Shown: positions 8,165-58,845 of the stretch, in pieces | Numbering within the stretch: position 1 is the stretch's first letter | Layout of the letters: each line of letters starts with the position of its first letter | Assembly: GCA_030599585.1 (NCBI GenBank) | Contig: JAUVNS010000001.1 | Location: forward strand, 160,001 to 224,000 | Source of the DNA: Promethearchaeota archaeon | GTDB lineage: Archaea > Asgardarchaeota > Lokiarchaeia > Sigyniarchaeales > SOKP01 | DNA: 64,000 nt | Reading direction: 5' to 3' | Position numbers and translations under genes: made by a program | The notes under the pieces: generated by a model | What the model saw: the letters and a program-made list of their open reading frames with translations, nothing else | Databases searched by the model: none | Told to the model about the DNA's origin: nothing

Positions 8165-10393
8165 CTATGGCTCTTGTAAGATGTCCCAAATTTTAATGGT
8201 CTTATCATTCGATCCACTTACTATATACCTACCATCAGGAGAGAAGGCAACTGAAGTTATATATTTTTTATGTCCTTCGAGTATCCAAACGAGTTCGTTA
8301 GTAGTTAAATCCCACACTTTAATATCTTTATCATATGAACCACTGACCATATAATTACCATCGAGAGAAACAGCTACATCGGTAACAAACCAAGAATGCC
8401 CTTTGAAAGACCTCACAAGCTTTCCAGTTGCAACATGCCACTCTCTTATAGTTTTGTCATTCGAACCACTAACGATATGTTTCCCATCAGGAGAAAATAC
8501 AACTGTAGTTATGTATTTTTTGTGAGCATCAATCGTTCTAACAATCTGACCAGTCTCAAGACTCCAGACCTTTAGAGTTCGGTCACTCGAGGCGCTAGCT
8601 ATATATTCACCATCAGGAGAGATAGCAACTGAACTCACCTCTTTTTTGTGCCCCTCGAGTGTCCTCACGATATCGCCAGTATTTGTATCCCATACTTTAA
8701 TATCTTTATCATATGAACCACTGACAATATAATTACCATCAGGAGAAACAGCTATGGCGGTAACGAACCAAGAATGCCCTTTGAGCGTTCGAATAGACTC
8801 TCTCGTGGAAAATTCCCAGATTTTTATAGTTTCATCGTTCGAGCCACTCACTATATATTTTCCGTCAGAAGATAGGGCAACTGAAGTTACGTATTTTTTA
8901 TGTCCCTCGAGCGTTTTTATGAGCTTACCTGAGGATATTTCCCATATTTTTATAGTTTTGTCGTTCGATGCACTAACAACATATTTCCCATCAGGAGAAA
9001 ACACCACCGAGCTTATACCCTTTCCATGGCCTTCAAAAATTTGAACAGGAATAATAGTTCCTTCTACCCTAGCAACTTTGCCTATTATTACTTTTTCTAT
9101 AGCTACTTCTTCCACTACTTCTGGTGGGGGAATAGGTTCAGGTGCAACTTTAGGTGATACTACTTCTTCTACCTCCGCTTGGGGGATAGGTTCAGGTACA
9201 ACTTTAGGTGGTACTATTTCTTCTATTACCTCCGCTTGGGGGATAGGTTCAGGTGCAACTTTAGGTAGTACTATTTCTTCTACTACCTCCGCTTGAACAA
9301 TTGGTTCTGGTTCAATTTCAAACTGCCGCTCCTTTTCTCTTGGTGCAATCTCAGTCATTTTTAACCTTACACCCAATTTTCTATCTGAAATAACTTGCTT
9401 TCTAGGGATTCTTCTCTTTCTTACTATTAGTATCACACTTATAACCAATATGATAACAATGAGAATCACTACTATTATTACACTTCCAAAAGGAAATTTG
9501 TATCCATTGATATTACTGGAAACTTCTTGAGTATCCTCTCCATTACCGCTAAAACTGTTATTTAATACTTCATTGTAGATAGAATTATATAGCTTAATAC
9601 CAACCGAATTATTATTAATTGTGTTTGTGACGATGATATTATTATCACTTTCTATTAAACTTATCCCACAATTAGTGTTGTAGCTTGCGTTATTTCCCGA
9701 AATATTATTATTATCACTATTATATAAATATATCCCATGATAAGTGTTGTAGCTTAGGTTATTTCCCGAAATAATATTATTATCACTATAAGATAAAAAT
9801 ATCCCATGATAAGTGTTGTAGCTTGGATTATTTCCCGAAATGTTGTTAAAACTGCTAAATATTAACCATATCCCAACAAAATCGTTGTTCCTTGCAGTGT
9901 TTGCCGAAATGTTGTTATAACTGCTAGAAGATATCCGTATCCCACAACGATTAGATGAAAAAGTATTATTAATTAATAGGGAATTAGTAACATTTAATAA
10001 TAGGATTCCCGCATTAGGATTATTTCCTGAATTGTAGATAGTGCAATTTTCAATCTTAAAGAACACATCGGAATTTTCAATCTCGATACAACTTCCCGAG
10101 TCTTCGCCATCTATTACCAAATCTTCTATGACATAAGGATCGGAATAGGTGCCGTTCCCCGTACAGATTCCCGCAGCTTCAGTAGCAGACCAATTATTAT
10201 AGATATGAATTTTTCCCGATATTTTTGCGAGTTTCAAACTATCGTTATCTAAACTAATATCATCGCTATATTCCGAACTTTTGCCGCAACTGCTCGTAAT
10301 AAGACTAAGATTAGTGGTAAATATTGGTAATAAAGCGAAAAAGATAATTAAAGTGATTAAAATTATTATATTTGATTTTACACTTGATTTCAT
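8165..10393 (-). CDS. Membrane protein: signal/TM + NosD-like parallel beta-helix + TM + P/E/V/K-rich linker + 7-bladed WD40 propeller
   Basis: GNGTYSDPYVIE cap, repeated GIxLxxSxNNxISGN, hydrophobic TM followed by RKRR, seven GH...SVAFSPDG..IVSGSxDKTIKIW repeats. Confidence 0.88.
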   Translation of the reverse strand: MKSSVKSNIIILITLIIFFALLPIFTTNLSLITSSCGKSSEYSDDISLDNDSLKLAKISGKIHIYNNWSATEAAGICTGNGTYSDPYVIEDLVIDGEDSGSCIEIENSDVFFKIENCTIYNSGNNPNAGILLLNVTNSLLINNTFSSNRCGIRISSSSYNNISANTARNNDFVGIWLIFSSFNNISGNNPSYNTYHGIFLSYSDNNIISGNNLSYNTYHGIYLYNSDNNNISGNNASYNTNCGISLIESDNNIIVTNTINNNSVGIKLYNSIYNEVLNNSFSGNGEDTQEVSSNINGYKFPFGSVIIVVILIVIILVISVILIVRKRRIPRKQVISDRKLGVRLKMTEIAPREKERQFEIEPEPIVQAEVVEEIVLPKVAPEPIPQAEVIEEIVPPKVVPEPIPQAEVEEVVSPKVAPEPIPPPEVVEEVAIEKVIIGKVARVEGTIIPVQIFEGHGKGISSVVFSPDGKYVVSASNDKTIKIWEISSGKLIKTLEGHKKYVTSVALSSDGKYIVSGSNDETIKIWEFSTRESIRTLKGHSWFVTAIAVSPDGNYIVSGSYDKDIKVWDTNTGDIVRTLEGHKKEVSSVAISPDGEYIASASSDRTLKVWSLETGQIVRTIDAHKKYITTVVFSPDGKHIVSGSNDKTIREWHVATGKLVRSFKGHSWFVTDVAVSLDGNYMVSGSYDKDIKVWDLTTNELVWILEGHKKYITSVAFSPDGRYIVSGSNDKTIKIWDILQEP
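9100..9310. repeat. Intragenic tandem repeat, ~4 copies of a 54-57 bp unit encoding PEPIPQAEV(I)EEIVPPKVA
   Basis: ATAGGTTCAGG recurs at 9132, 9186, 9243, with a degenerate copy at 9300. Confidence 0.9.
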
Positions 10394-48550: not shown

Positions 48551-50014
48551 ATGGCCGAAAGTAACCAAAATAATCCAGAAATAATTAAAATTAAGGATTT
48601 TGTGAAGGATGATAGATTAGATGACGCAGTTAAAATAATTGCTTTATACCTTGGAGACTCAAATCAAGATAATTATTTGAACAGATTAGAGAACATTTTC
48701 GAGATGCTACTTTCCCTTCATGGAGGGAGGATGGTATTGAGATTTTTAATAGAGCAACTCATAATAGATATTCCTTCATTACTAGAACATCTCTCTAAGC
48801 GTGATTCTGTTCTTCGATATTCATTTTTGTTACTCTTGAAAACTCTTTGTGAAAACGAATGCGATTTGTTCCTCCCCCACAGTGAAGATTTATTAGATTC
48901 TCCTGACCCAAATGTTAGAGAAGCCGACTTACAGCTTATTATTTTTATGGCAGGAGGAGAAACAGATATTGAAGATGAATCTCTCGTTAATAAAATCGTG
49001 GCTACTCTAGCTGACGAAAAAGATTTTGTAATTGAGAAAGCTATACAAGCGCTAATAACAATTGGTCGAAGACATCCATCTTTAATTACAAAAGCAGTTA
49101 CTAATTTTGTTAAAGAACAGCCAGAAAACGAAAAAATGAAAACTGCTATAGATACTGTGCTAAAGTCAGTAGTCACTGTTGAAAAAATTGATGAATTAGT
49201 AGAAGAAAGCCATAAAGAAGCAATATTGGACGAGAAATCATTAGAAAAGGAAAAAATTGAGAGAATCGATAAGAAGTTAGATTTAAAGAAAAAAGAAATT
49301 GAAATCAAGATAAAAAAATTAGAATTGAAAGAAAAAGAGAAGGACTTAGAAGAAAAAATAACCCAAGAAAGAGAAAAAACACTAAAACTTAAGGAAGACA
49401 TTCACGAACAAGAAACTACAGTAGGGCCTGACTTAGAAATCCTCCCTAAAAAAGTTATAAAACAATTAAAAAAGGAAGAAACTGAGATAATCGATAAGGA
49501 ATTAGAATTAAAGAAAAAAGAAATTGAAATCAAGAAAAAAAAATTAGAATTAGAAGAAAAAGAGAAGGATTTAGAAGAAAAAATAATCCAAGAAAGAGAA
49601 AAAACGTTAAAACTTAAAGAAGAAATTCTCGAACAAGAAACTATAGTTGGTTCTGACTTAGAAATCCTCCCTAAAAAAGTTATAAAACAATTGGAAAAGG
49701 AAGAATCTCACATCATAGACAGGGAGATAGAATTAAAGAAAAAAGAAATTGAAATCAAGAAAAAAAAATTAGATTTGGAAGAAAAGGAACGGGAAATTGA
49801 AGAATTTGCTATTCAAGAAAAAGAGAAAGCTTTGAAAATAAAGGAGGAACTAATTGAAAAAGAAACAGAACTATCTAACGTAGAAATTGAACTTCATCAG
49901 AAAAAAATAGAGGAAAAAGAACAAAGAATCATGGAAAACGAACTTGAGAGAGCAGAAGAGAAAATAAAAGAGCTGAAAGAAGAGGATTTTAACGACTCTG
50001 ACGAAGACAGTTGA
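48551..50014 (+). CDS. ARM/HEAT head + long repetitive coiled coil + acidic tail
   Basis: DSPDPNVREA, DEKDFVIEKAIQAL HEAT motifs; E/K-rich rod; ends EEDFNDSDEDS. Confidence 0.8.
   Translation: MAESNQNNPEIIKIKDFVKDDRLDDAVKIIALYLGDSNQDNYLNRLENIFEMLLSLHGGRMVLRFLIEQLIIDIPSLLEHLSKRDSVLRYSFLLLLKTLCENECDLFLPHSEDLLDSPDPNVREADLQLIIFMAGGETDIEDESLVNKIVATLADEKDFVIEKAIQALITIGRRHPSLITKAVTNFVKEQPENEKMKTAIDTVLKSVVTVEKIDELVEESHKEAILDEKSLEKEKIERIDKKLDLKKKEIEIKIKKLELKEKEKDLEEKITQEREKTLKLKEDIHEQETTVGPDLEILPKKVIKQLKKEETEIIDKELELKKKEIEIKKKKLELEEKEKDLEEKIIQEREKTLKLKEEILEQETIVGSDLEILPKKVIKQLEKEESHIIDREIELKKKEIEIKKKKLDLEEKEREIEEFAIQEKEKALKIKEELIEKETELSNVEIELHQKKIEEKEQRIMENELERAEEKIKELKEEDFNDSDEDS
49240..49790. repeat. 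Intragenic 225-bp (75-aa) tandem duplication, ~2.4 copies
   Basis: ATCGAT at 49265/49490 (ATAGAC 49715); CCTCCCTAAAAAAG at 49441/49666. Confidence 0.9.
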
Positions 50015-55185: not shown

Positions 55186-56067
55186 TTGCTAATCATGGAT
55201 AATAGGAATTTTAACGAAAACAAAATGAATAAGAAACAACAGAAAAAAGAACTATCGAGTTTTAGAAGGAGTCAATTAGCGCCTGAATATACTAATTTAG
55301 AGTTTTCAGTAATACTGAATAAACCGGAACATGCAGCAAACATTGGTGCAATAGCTAGACTAATGAAAAATTTCAATTTCGAGCACTTGATTATCTATAA
55401 TCCAAATGAAAAAGCAGAAAAAATTCGAAGTTACCATACGCAAGGTTTTGCAATGCACGGTAAGGAAATTCTCTTTAACGCAGAAATTATAACGATTGAA
55501 AACCAAATTGACCACCTATCTGGCTTTAAAGAATTGATGAATAGATTCGATATAAAATTTGCTACGACGGCCAAAGGAATGCATTATACGAATATAAGAA
55601 GATTGGCTACTTTCCCGGCAGAATTAACAATCCCTGTATCAGAAGAACCACTTAAAATTGCCTTAATTTTTGGAAGAGAATCTCACGGTCTTACGAATGA
55701 CGAAATCGAGATGACTGATCTAGTCTTAAGGATACCATCTAGCGAGGAGTACCCTACACTAAATCTATCTCAAGCTTGTGGAATTATTTTATATGAGTTA
55801 TATAAAAAAATACACAATCTAGAAATTGGAAGAGGTCCCAAACCAGTTTTACTTGCAAATAAAAACGATAAGCAAATGTTTTACAATTTAATTAAAAATT
55901 TAATTACTAATATTAGAATTCGCACTTATAGGGAAGAAAATGTATTTTTCGCCTTTAAAAATGTATTTGAGAGAGCTTTCGTATCTAAAAAAGAATTAAA
56001 CCTTATTATTGGGGTATTTTCAAAGTTGAATTCGTATTTAAAAAAAAGAGATAAGTATGAAGACTAA
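55186..56067 (+). CDS. trmJ: SPOUT RNA methyltransferase, TrmJ/LasT family
   Basis: PEHAANIGAIARLMKNF, FGRESHGLTNDE, YPTLNLSQA. Confidence 0.88.
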   Translation: MLIMDNRNFNENKMNKKQQKKELSSFRRSQLAPEYTNLEFSVILNKPEHAANIGAIARLMKNFNFEHLIIYNPNEKAEKIRSYHTQGFAMHGKEILFNAEIITIENQIDHLSGFKELMNRFDIKFATTAKGMHYTNIRRLATFPAELTIPVSEEPLKIALIFGRESHGLTNDEIEMTDLVLRIPSSEEYPTLNLSQACGIILYELYKKIHNLEIGRGPKPVLLANKNDKQMFYNLIKNLITNIRIRTYREENVFFAFKNVFERAFVSKKELNLIIGVFSKLNSYLKKRDKYED

Positions 56068-56086
56068 ATGTAAGAGTTTAATCGCT

Positions 56087-56305
56087 TCAGGTAGCTTGAT
56101 AATATCTAGGTTTGCGACTATATACAACTATTAGTTTATCAGGTGTTTCGTTAACAATTCTTCTAATCACTTTAGCCAAAGCATTATGAGTTTCGTATCC
56201 CATCGCACTAGCCCATTCACTGGCAGTAGATTTGCCTAATTCCTTCAATTTGTCTAAACACATTTGTTCATACGTCCTTGAAATTACTTTTTTTGCTTTT
56301 AACAT
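56087..56305 (-). CDS. Small stand-alone winged-helix protein (72 aa)
   Basis: LDKLKELGKSTASEWASAMGY...LAKVIRRI + wing RKPRYY; GGAGG SD upstream. Confidence 0.75.
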   Translation of the reverse strand: MLKAKKVISRTYEQMCLDKLKELGKSTASEWASAMGYETHNALAKVIRRIVNETPDKLIVVYSRKPRYYQAT

Positions 56306-56803
56306 TAATATCTACCTCCCATTCCGTTTTTTTATTATTTAAACATAAATTTTTTATAAATTCATATTAGTAATGAATGTTTCATAGAAAATTGCTACTT
56401 TCACCGCACCTAACTGTAAGAACAGTGGCTTTCAATTCCAAGTTTTATTCTGATAATTTCTCCTAGTATTCTAATAAATTCTATCCTAAAAAAAAATTAG
56501 ATGAGAGGCTATTTAAACCATGATGTCAGACATTTGTAAACGAATACATATAAAATGTATAAGGATTCAAATTTATCCGTTGTACAAACCAAAAACATAG
56601 CTTACAAAATAACTAACAAAAATAGAGTTTACTTGACAAAAACGTATTTTAAATAAGTAAAAAACGATAAGGGAAATAAAGTTGATAAGCTTTAAATTAA
56701 ATATTAAAGAATCTTGAATCTAGTTATATTTTTGGGATTAGGAGTGCACCACTAATAAGATTTTATTTCATAATTTTTACTCATTTATATATATCTTCAT
56801 AAT

Positions 56804-56925
56804 TGGGAATGCTTTCCCATTATAAAAAGCGAGATTTTTATGATTTAGTAATTAATGCGTTAACATTAATGAAAAAAATTATGGTTTACGGTAAACCACA
56901 TAAGTGAAAAGATTTAAATAAATCT
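56804..56925. promoter_or_regulatory. Row of four unrelated short palindromes (operators or hairpins)
   Basis: TGGGAA-4-TTCCCA (56804), ATTAATG-6-CATTAAT (56851), TGGTTTAC-G-GTAAACCA (56882), AGATTTA-AA-TAAATCT (56910). Confidence 0.4.
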
Positions 56926-56999
56926 CAAGAGTTTGTTATTGTAGATAGACCTAATGTAAGAAAATTTAAGTAATATAGGGAAAAAATATAGTCAAAAAA

Positions 57000-57114
57000 G
57001 ACTCCTGCGCCACCCTGGATTTTTGTCTTTTGGTAACGCGAAATTTTCGCGTAATTCGCCATTCTTACCCTATATTAATTCGGACCTTATTTTTAGGTCT
57101 TGGCGACAGGAGTC
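57000..57114. ncRNA. Candidate structured non-coding RNA domain (unassigned family)
   Basis: Closing helix GACTCCTG-CGCCA / TGGCG-A-CAGGAGTC; inner hairpins ACGCGAA/TTCGCGT and GACCT/AGGTC; GC-rich island in AT-rich gap; U6 tract follows on minus strand. Confidence 0.55.
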
Positions 57115-57382
57115 AACCTTTCTAAATGAAATAGGTATATTAGTAAAAGCTCAATTTATGATTAAATTTCTGCTACATAAAATCTTTTTTCACCAAGAAA
57201 TAGACTTGTGAATCATTCTATTATCCATTAAATGGACCTATTCACTTGTTTTAGTTAACTTAAACCTTATTACATAAAACATGTATTCCATCAATATTCT
57301 ACGGTAATGTTATCCACAAAATGTGAGCTTACCTTTAAAATAAAAAGATATATATACGCTATTATGGTATTTTTAATTAACC

Positions 57383-57847
57383 ATGTCTCAATCGTATAAA
57401 GATTTTTTAGATAAATACAAAATCGACGATTTTAAAACGAGTTTAAAGCTTACGGGACGCACAAAAGTAGATTTTTACAACGATATCGATAAACTATTAA
57501 AAAGTATGAGTACAATATTCGACAAACTGGCAACAATTGCTCCTATGAGGGGTGCCCATGTATTAATGGCAATAGCAAAACTAACAGGACCAGATAAAGT
57601 AGTAAACAAAACGGATGTTATAAGGTGCTTACATATTGAAAGATTAGAGAAGATTAAATCTGCAATTGATTATTTAGAAAAAGCGAAGTATATTACGATT
57701 GAGAAGAAAACAGAAAAATTCCACATTATAAAGTTAAACGAAGGAGATAACCCCGATTTAGCAGTCTTTAGAGAAATCGTTCAGAAATATTGGAAATCCC
57801 CTCGAGAAGAAGTAGAACAAGCTAAGAAATGGAGCCAAGAAGGATGA
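57383..57847 (+). CDS. Winged-helix domain protein
   Basis: HVLMAIAKL...VNKTDVIRCL...IKSAIDYLEKAKYITIEKK wHTH pattern. Confidence 0.7.
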   Translation: MSQSYKDFLDKYKIDDFKTSLKLTGRTKVDFYNDIDKLLKSMSTIFDKLATIAPMRGAHVLMAIAKLTGPDKVVNKTDVIRCLHIERLEKIKSAIDYLEKAKYITIEKKTEKFHIIKLNEGDNPDLAVFREIVQKYWKSPREEVEQAKKWSQEG

Positions 57848-58845
57848 GAAATTCTCTGAAAAGCGTAGTAGAACTCAAGTTTGAAGATGAACAGAGTTTA
57901 GAAGATTCTGTTAAGATTATAAGATCAGAGTACATTAAAAAAGCGATAAAATCACTAATGTATATCGCTATCGTTTTATCTGTAGCACTAACCTATTTAT
58001 TGTATGGTTATTTACCGTATATCGAAAGCAATTTTTTCACTAACTTATTAGCTACTGAGAGTTTTAGTCCAGGAGGAAACGGTTTTCCTTTGAATTTAAC
58101 TTTAAGTTGGACGCTTTTTAGTACATGTATTTTCTTAATAGTGTATTTTTTTCGATCAAGTCAAAATAAATTTACACCCTCTTTAATTAAATATATCGAA
58201 CAAGAAACCAAATATGCTGGATTTGAATTCATAAAGAAGATTGAGAGCGTTGGATTATTTATGGTTTTGACAGCGGTCTCTATCGCAATTTTCTTCTATA
58301 TAGATCTTAGGTTTATTCAATTTAATAACACTTTCTGGAGTATTTTCTTTCAACATTCATTTTTCTTCTATTTATTAGTAAGTTTAGTTCTCCCAATCGT
58401 TTTCATATATAGAAACGATAAATTTGCTATAAAAATAAAGGATAATGTTTTCGTTCTTTGTAATCTGCATTATAATCTTCGGAAAAATAAGAATTACGAT
58501 CCTAGTTTATTAGGAATAATTCTCACATCAAATCGCTTGTGTTCTAAGTTTGATAAATCAGGAAAATATGTCTATTCTAAAATTTCAGAAGATAGATGGC
58601 TACTTCGTAACGAACCTTCTACTATGTCGCCATTTCTTCATTTTGAGGAGTTTTCCGTCCCATTTAACTTCCAAAAACAATTTTTAAACATTGTTTTAGC
58701 TCTTAATGAGTGGGAAAATAATTATGTTTCAAACCTCGCTTCAATGAATTACTACCTTTCAAACTCTTTTCCAAGTTATAAATACGAGATGAAGAAAAGC
58801 GACAAATCAGACCAACTTATCTATTTGAAGTTTTTAAATCACTAA
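57829..58845 (+). CDS. Membrane protein (4 TM) with C-terminal soluble domain
   Basis: Four hydrophobic segments; overlaps upstream wHTH gene. Confidence 0.7.
   Translation: MEPRRMRNSLKSVVELKFEDEQSLEDSVKIIRSEYIKKAIKSLMYIAIVLSVALTYLLYGYLPYIESNFFTNLLATESFSPGGNGFPLNLTLSWTLFSTCIFLIVYFFRSSQNKFTPSLIKYIEQETKYAGFEFIKKIESVGLFMVLTAVSIAIFFYIDLRFIQFNNTFWSIFFQHSFFFYLLVSLVLPIVFIYRNDKFAIKIKDNVFVLCNLHYNLRKNKNYDPSLLGIILTSNRLCSKFDKSGKYVYSKISEDRWLLRNEPSTMSPFLHFEEFSVPFNFQKQFLNIVLALNEWENNYVSNLASMNYYLSNSFPSYKYEMKKSDKSDQLIYLKFLNH

Follow-up and report, generated by a model that had tools for sequence, protein, structure and literature searches.

A folded element in a 1.08-kb intergenic gap

The window analysed here is a 64,000-nt stretch of a Promethearchaeota contig, drawn from a genome of 4.85 Mb with 33% GC. 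Within it lies a 1.08-kb intergenic gap containing an island with its core at 57000-57114 on the + strand, followed by the upstream region of a 154-aa gene. The island was described as GC-rich in a first-pass annotation made from the letters alone; enrichment is indeed present but modest, at 42% compared with 22-29% in the surroundings. The features to which we refer throughout are as follows:

56905-56920, + strand: promoter-like BRE/TATA block AAAGATTTAAATA, kept in all four syntenic orthologs
56971-56980, + strand: 5' leader strand of a long-range (pseudoknot) pair, exact complement of 57068-57077
57000-57012, + strand: 5' strand of closing helix P1; all 14 P1 pairs compensated among 98 distinct sequences
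57013-57035, + strand: J1/2, a near-invariant U-rich single strand CCCUGGAUUUUUGUCUUUUGGUA, unpaired in the consensus
57036-57052, + strand: hairpin P2, 7 bp, compensatory changes in 7 of 7 pairs
57053-57082, + strand: J2/3, a pyrimidine-rich junction of ~30 nt, whose 3' part (57068-57077) pairs with the leader
57083-57099, + strand: hairpin P3, 5 bp, compensatory changes in 5 of 5 pairs
57101-57114, + strand: 3' strand of P1; pairs compensated among 98 distinct sequences
57115-57122, + strand: 3' tail, including a short U-tract AACCUUUC; the RNA probably ends here

The first-pass annotation held that a fold no better than dinucleotide-shuffled controls would count against an RNA at this site. 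Instead, the 126-nt core folds on the + strand with a minimum free energy of -42 kcal/mol versus -22.9 +/- 3.1 for 200 such shuffles, none of which is as good (z -6.2). Its description of an unassigned, highly structured non-coding RNA with a pseudoknot-type long-range pair is supported (see below). The comparative sequence evidence indicates that the island is a genuine gene for a folded non-coding RNA of ~120-180 nt, both ends of which are predicted, and we consider it very probable that an independent, new family of non-coding RNA lies behind the core. The extent of ~340 nt proposed at first does not hold, as the paralogs described below have in common only about -35 to +120 around position 57000.

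The polarity of the RNA follows from its helices. Among the helix cells, G:U combinations outnumber A:C combinations by 87 to 24, which identifies the + strand as the folded one and argues against the minus-strand reading that had been entertained; in the same folding comparison, the minus strand of the core yields a z of -3.7. The window copy does have the run of six U's that would follow the main helix on the minus strand, as does L151, its closest ortholog; the other eight paralogs do not. On the + strand, a T-run of at least three follows P1 in 83 of 96 sequences versus 55 of 94 control windows, a modest enrichment. At the other end, the block ..AAGTGA..GATTTAAATA.. at 56905-56920, located ~80 nt 5' of P1, is kept in 4 of 4 syntenic orthologs, and a similar block, AAGATTTAAATA, precedes the most widely conserved paralog (the master copy, below) in about 20 species. 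We infer that this block is a BRE/TATA element, which by the usual archaeal TATA-to-start spacing would place the start of transcription near 56943. Upstream of P1, TATA-like words are not concentrated at any one distance; there is only a depletion within -30 to -1.

Downstream of the core, the "adjacent weaker domain" of the first-pass annotation dissolves on inspection. The segment at 57125-57340 folds no better than its shuffles (z -0.60, with 59 of 200 as good), and 57140-57260 is unconserved in the four syntenic orthologs. Conservation is found at 57262-57382, which is the upstream region of the 154-aa gene. Here, a TACAT-N5-ATGTA palindrome (57271-57285) is followed by a BRE/TATA-like CTTTAAAATAAAAAGATATATATA and then by the start codon, an arrangement that is probably the operator and promoter of that gene. 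The TATA-like tract near 57350, previously taken as a minus-strand signal, belongs to this +-strand promoter.

Further conserved blocks are observed elsewhere in the gap, at 56386-56530 and 56803-56819. They include an inverted repeat, TGGGAA-N4-TTCCCA, that is kept in four species while its loop changes, and a block of ~100 nt that finishes in GAGGCTATTTAAACCATGATG. Elsewhere in the window, a repeat finder reports tandem direct repeats at 8205-9008, 9103-9340, 9633-9908 and 49235-49909, with units of 126 nt (x5), about 57 nt (x4), 69 nt (x3) and 225 nt (x3), which are probably internal to coding sequence.

Consensus fold, invariant strand and long-range pair

Compensatory substitutions among relatives show that a three-way junction, formed by the closing helix P1 and the hairpins P2 and P3, is maintained as the consensus fold. 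The 13-bp closing helix with one bulge (57000-57012 with 57101-57114) and the two hairpins (57036-57052 and 57083-57099) had been proposed from the window alone; all are in the sequence as described, and the covariation in relatives that was suggested as a check is found for all three helices. With nine sequences, 97% of the helix cells pair compared with 35-46% when the partner columns are slid, and with 58 sequences, 23 of the 26 pairs are compensated. When the set is enlarged to 101 sequences (98 distinct), all 26 pairs have changed on both sides, 94.8% of the cells pair compared with 34-45% after the partner columns have been shifted by 1-3, and none of 500 column shuffles matches the observed covariation, figures that are biased in the model's favour by the fitting of the alignments to a covariance model. 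This bias is countered by the extent of the replacements: P1 is wholly replaced in some members (CTTCCATA.../...TGTGGAAG), and P3 occurs as at least five different sequences, with GACCU/AGGUC exchanged for GACGC/GCGUC or GCCUU/AAGGC. The window copy itself departs from the consensus at six of the seven P2 pairs yet remains paired. In four species, the orthologs of the master copy (L058-L061) carry an insertion of ~30 nt after P2 that apparently adds a fourth hairpin, while the invariant strand and everything else in the RNA stay the same.

Two smaller pairings noted in the window fare less well. The GGTAA/TTACC pair has no conserved counterpart among the other copies. The alternative pairing of TGGCGA with TCGCCA is present in the window copy but lost in its orthologs L111 and L077.

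The most conserved part of the RNA is a single strand. J1/2, between P1 and P2, has the consensus CCUGGAUUUUUGUCUUUUGG, is 20-24 nt long, measuring 22-24 nt in the consensus fold, and is essentially invariant and unpaired. Conservation is at least 97% at most columns among 98 sequences, part of which had been gathered by an exact motif; this invariance is upheld by the 58 sequences gathered with the covariance model, in which J1/2 is nearly invariant and single changes appear only in the most divergent members. Two ways of accounting for such a block were considered and rejected. Read in a minus-strand frame, as a micro-ORF after GGAGG, it shows almost no third-position variation among 58 sequences that are otherwise 70-80% identical; the micro-ORF is excluded because the frame of the block is not the same in the window and consensus copies. 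A long antisense guide was rejected because the genome contains no site complementary to J1/2 with four or fewer mismatches. The second junction, J2/3, is much less conserved than J1/2; its consensus is AUUUCGCCCUCCUCCCCCUAUUUUAUUU, of which the window copy is a variant without CCUCC.

Part of J2/3 is complementary to the 5' leader: TAATATAGGG (56971-56980) and CCCTATATTA (57068-57077) form an exact 10-bp complement. This crossing pair, already noted in the window, is present and its equivalents covary, but the pairing is significant in only about a quarter of members (27 of 95 sequences across the family, with 3 of 92 for a downstream control stretch). In the genus-centred set, 29 of 58 sequences pair significantly when compared to shuffled leaders. 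The commonest pair is AAAAUAAAAUAGGG with CCCUAUUUUAUUU, while a variant changed on both sides joins CAAAAUAGGG with CCCUAUUUUG (U:A to C:G), and the window copy represents an A/U swap. A GAAAGAU/AUCUUUC pairing class is observed in the paralogs K5, K8 and K9, the partners being class-specific, and in L111, AACUA...GGGGAA pairs with UUCCCCUAGUU. The spacing between the leader strand and P1 varies from 9 to 41 nt, which argues for a tethered strand and against a TATA box. As judged from these complements, the pseudoknot exists but is an accessory feature that many members lack.

Paralogs, distribution and synteny

The genome contains nine paralogs, the core and eight more, that are 71-80% identical with sharp ends: all nine start at GACTCCTG and finish at CAGGAGTC plus a short pyrimidine tail. 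A first covariance model, made of these nine copies, detects 1-7 copies in 35 of the 36 other genomes of the genus. With a second model, made of a more diverse set, the RNA is distributed as follows:

Own GTDB family: 119 of 126 genomes, in 12 of 13 genera, with 1-18 copies per genome
Sister family: 2 of 13 genomes
Other families of the class: 0 of 11 genomes

Two genomes that are assembled as a single contig contain exactly one copy each. When an exact 18-mer of J1/2 was scanned against 185,579 species genomes, more than 116 loci were recovered. Nearly all of the archaeal loci scanned have a full-length or edge-truncated model match and lie on Asgard MAG contigs; the 14 bacterial and 6 viral exact loci have no match to the RNA model and are chance matches. 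None among the matches listed is named as a cultured strain. Some of the matching MAG contigs bear submitters' phylum labels (Odin-, Thor-, Hermod- and Hodarchaeota) that are unreliable, and a range beyond Lokiarchaeia is therefore not claimed. One sequence labelled 'Candidatus Odinarchaeota' (L143/L045, JBHLPZ010000082.1) is apparently one and the same as a contig from a genome assigned by GTDB to the Lokiarchaeial genus studied here, judging from hit coordinates (662-786) and a score (131.3 bits) that both match.

The nine copies adjoin unrelated genes, with three facing a convergent gene and six having a same-strand gene downstream, and we find neither shared neighbour genes nor mobile-element genes around them. 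Two of the nine define lineages with fixed positions. The first is the master copy, K4 (C9:150100), which has the same flanking genes in nearly every species of the genus. In three genera, the gene order at this locus is 249-aa, 493-aa, 167-aa, 158-aa, 72-aa and 142-aa genes, the RNA and a radical-SAM gene, with proteins that are 50-75% identical across the three. Sequence conservation is lost in the spacer that follows the RNA and returns only close to the upstream region of the radical-SAM gene itself. The second lineage is that of the window copy, K1, whose separate locus is syntenic in at least four other MAGs; window positions 55386-58559 are 87% identical to a 3.1-kb contig of isolate E44_bin85 (Promethearchaeota, a Loki-type Asgard MAG). 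Near another copy, K5, we observe a gene (L024:3416-5110) for a 565-aa protein with five mTERF repeats (E 1.7e-27), a mostly eukaryotic domain, adjoining an XPD-type helicase and a PNK-like kinase/phosphatase.

Another paralog, K6, is found in a strain-specific region, and an empty-site comparison with 40 genomes of the genus recovered no homolog of its flanking sequence. What was duplicated here, from about -39 to +115, corresponds almost exactly to the RNA and matches the master copies of other species at 92-95% identity. The shared unit being close to the RNA alone, the paralogs must have spread by some route. This raises the question of whether the family is a small mobile or retroposed element, MITE- or SINE-like, with P1 as its terminal inverted repeat and recent spread as the source of its conservation. 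Such an element would account for K6, for the range of 1 to 18 copies per genome, for the sharp ends of homology and for the several copies near contig ends. However, the loci of the master and window copies are syntenic and fixed across species and genera, we found no transposase or integrase among the neighbouring genes, and no copy of the RNA is present in the viral contigs. The 71-80% identity among copies, combined with compensatory changes and G:U asymmetry, indicates selection on the RNA fold, and paralog spread is also compatible with an independent non-coding RNA. We therefore regard a mobile element as very unlikely. A MITE or small transposon specifically was rejected, given two lineages fixed at syntenic loci and a 'terminal repeat' that evolves as an RNA helix. 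What the comparison of genomes shows is vertical inheritance at syntenic loci together with dispersed paralogs.

Candidate roles of the RNA

The first-pass annotation called for an Rfam scan and recognised no tRNA, 5S, SRP, RNase P or riboswitch identity, a view supported by searches with Rfam, ARAGORN and RF00001. At gathering scores, Rfam 15 has no match anywhere in the window; at E<=10, there are three noise matches around the element (E 3.9-5.2, 15-19 bits compared to cut-offs of 50-100). ARAGORN reports no tRNA or tmRNA genes in the window, and the RNase P and SRP RNAs are located elsewhere in the genome. Among guide RNAs, the C/D-box class was rejected by inspection of the alignment, which has no box C in any copy, and the H/ACA class on its sole match (E 3.9), which lies mostly outside the core. 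We found no description of the RNA in the paper library that was searched.

The RNA was first suspected to be a 5S rRNA, as RF00001 detects no bona fide 5S in the genus, its single good match adjoining a bacterial 23S and thus representing a contaminant. The likeness is in size (~120 nt), an end-closed three-way junction and multiple copies; unlike 5S rRNA, however, the RNA has long single-stranded junctions in place of helices II-V and is without the loop C and loop E motifs. This identity was dropped because weak matches elsewhere proved to be true, divergent 5S genes: RF00001 is silent at our locus even at E<=10, and a separate divergent homolog is found at C9 ~121989-122107, which carries, like its relatives, the motifs CCAUCCGAACCCGGAAGUUAAAC and AGUACU. 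The divergent 5S of the genus scores 25-27 bits under RF00001 in two relatives (L085 and L086) and 16.5 bits in the RNA's own genome. In the latter (C9:121940-122130), the 16-nt loop-C piece ACCAUCCGAACCCGG is missing from its normal place and occurs ~100 nt downstream, such that this homolog may represent a 5S gene that has been rearranged, permuted or split, or else a partial second copy.

Another resemblance is to the partners of Ro60/Rsr, namely Y RNAs and their bacterial Y-like counterparts. They are ~100-120 nt long, with a long bulged stem formed by the ends, a pyrimidine-rich interior, a 3' U-tail and several paralogs. Unlike these, however, the RNA comes from a genome in which no TROVE/Ro60 gene was found: PF05731 has no matches there, whereas two positive control genomes were detected. 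No Rfam Y RNA matches either, and this identity was rejected.

Among roles that do not depend on a known class, one is a base-pairing riboregulator, in which the C-rich J2/3 CCCUCCUCC, of the same sense as the anti-Shine-Dalgarno CCUCC, would sequester the ribosome-binding sites of mRNAs. Most members do have CCUCC in an unpaired junction, the 16S rRNA 3' end reads ...CACCUCCU, and a GGAGGU Shine-Dalgarno stands 5' of a 72-aa gene in the window. However, the window lineage (K1, L151 and L110) and several divergent subfamilies are without CCUCC in J2/3, and J2/3 is far below J1/2 in conservation, such that we give this role a very small probability.

A cis-regulatory leader or riboswitch-like aptamer, whose junctions would form a ligand pocket while P1 and the U-tract control read-through into the downstream gene, is the role that the first-pass annotation had in mind when it proposed an attenuating leader for the small wHTH gene. 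The architecture is suggestive, and three-way-junction pseudoknot riboswitches have the same covarying stems, highly conserved junction nucleotides and long-range pair. A U-tract follows P1, six of the nine copies have a same-strand gene downstream and the master copy is always followed by the same radical-SAM gene. Unlike those riboswitches, however, the RNA occurs at stand-alone loci: the downstream genes are mutually unrelated, a coherent set of functionally related targets and a conserved expression platform are absent, and three copies face a convergent gene. The spacers range from 54 to 440 nt, with that of the master locus unconserved, and a separate, conserved BRE/TATA and palindromic operator intervene between the window RNA and the 154-aa gene. 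Furthermore, P1 consists of 13-14 strong pairs, and its sole proposed competitor, TGGCGA/TCGCCA, is unconserved in orthologs. Because neighbours differ between copies while two paralog lineages, including that of the window, are syntenic across species, we hold this reading to be highly unlikely.

The RNA could also be directed at the ribosome, acting as a blocker or as a factor in biogenesis through pairing of one part with 16S rRNA. K4, K6 and K8 contain an 11-nt perfect complement to 16S 1077-1087 that 15-20 of 300 shuffles equal, and J1/2 can form a 16-bp, G:U-rich duplex with 16S ~700-720. This duplex is at chance level, however, being reached in 45 of 300 trials with shuffled 16S and in 42 of 300 with a shuffled loop, and pairing of J2/3 with 16S is not significant (122/200). 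The 11-mer sits in the 3' strand of P1, where the sequence is already accounted for by the helix, and the window copy and five other paralogs offer nothing beyond 8-9-mers at chance level, leaving a ribosomal target highly improbable. Finally, a self-cleaving or otherwise catalytic RNA with an active site built from the conserved junctions is extremely improbable: although a pseudoknotted three-way junction with invariant junction nucleotides would suit a ribozyme, no ribozyme family matches even at E<=10, most members are without the pseudoknot and there is no retroelement context.

We instead lean towards an independently transcribed, stable small RNA that would act in trans within a ribonucleoprotein, as its RNA component. 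A strand of >20 nt that stays unpaired and unchanged while all helices around it are rewritten is most readily understood as a contact surface for a conserved macromolecule. The helices would then form a scaffold on which the invariant single strand GGAUUUUUGUCUUUUGG, with an Sm-site-like A-U5-G inside, is displayed to a conserved protein, and in a subset of members, pairing of the 5' leader with J2/3 would lock the fold as a pseudoknot. A scaffold with J1/2 as the protein platform is, on balance, the role that we favour from comparative data.

The identity of the protein is more tentative. Archaeal Sm-like proteins bind U-rich RNA, and an Sm-like (SmAP/LSm) ring would be the most likely partner. 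Within J1/2, the unpaired and near-invariant strand between P1 and P2, the word GGAUUUUUGUC resembles an Sm site under the pattern RAU4-6GR, with the exception that its last position is U rather than a purine; the resemblance is to a 7-nt AU-rich word, common in an AT-rich genome (33% GC). The Sm-site consensus is quoted as AAUUUUUGG (PMC5587771). When compared to the eukaryotic Sm-class snRNAs (U1/U2/U4/U5/U7) and to small RNAs bound by archaeal SmAP or bacterial Hfq, the RNA has in common a single-stranded A-U5-G between helices, a multi-copy gene family, a 3' U-tract and a genome encoding Sm-like proteins, one of which is limited to the same clade. In contrast to snRNAs, it has no sequence or model similarity to any of them, and the U that takes the place of the purine after G is followed by a second U-tract.

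Four LSM-domain genes are found in the genome, none of which adjoins any copy of the RNA. The Sm-like partner was proposed first and the distribution of LSM proteins examined afterwards (E<=1e-12), with the following result for the candidate partner, a 111-aa, family-restricted LSM paralog (paralog C), and for a control:

111-aa LSM paralog C: own family, 110 of 126 genomes, all 13 genera; sister family, 1 of 13 (40% identity); other families, 0 of 11
Canonical 84-aa SmAP (control): own family, 118 of 126 genomes; sister family, 11 of 13; found in every family

Paralog C is encoded at G000:C47:9939-10271 (L222:1456-1791). Its uridine pocket is intact (DGYMNL...IRG), and it has an acidic C-terminal tail. 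Across genera, it is 70-93% identical, with the exception of one genus at ~55%, and its closest solved relatives are archaeal SmAPs. Paralog C and the RNA thus have a family-restricted distribution in common. As both are traits of one clade, however, their co-distribution is in effect one evolutionary event, and many other genes will have the same pattern; for this reason, we hold an Sm-like partner to be possible rather than probable. Within the family, the genomes without the RNA and those without paralog C do not coincide, which says little either way, as the MAGs are incomplete. A more specific proposal, drawn by analogy, is a dedicated Sm-ring small RNP in which the clade-specific LSm paralog would assemble on the A-U5-G strand as a counterpart of eukaryotic Sm-class snRNPs with an RNA-processing role of its own; this we consider unlikely. 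Since it is limited to one Lokiarchaeial family, the RNA cannot simply be regarded as ancestral to snRNAs.

Apart from the universal RNAs, Asgard archaea have few conserved structured RNAs on record. The comparative support for this RNA is very strong, with 26 of 26 pairs covarying and 119 of 126 genomes of the family containing it. It belongs in RNA family databases, as annotation will otherwise continue to show nothing at its loci but intergenic sequence. Being confined to one family, it has limited bearing on the origin of eukaryotes. With an invariant strand of >20 nt that implies a conserved molecular partner, it nevertheless provides a concrete object for asking what roles Sm-like proteins have in the closest archaeal relatives of eukaryotes.
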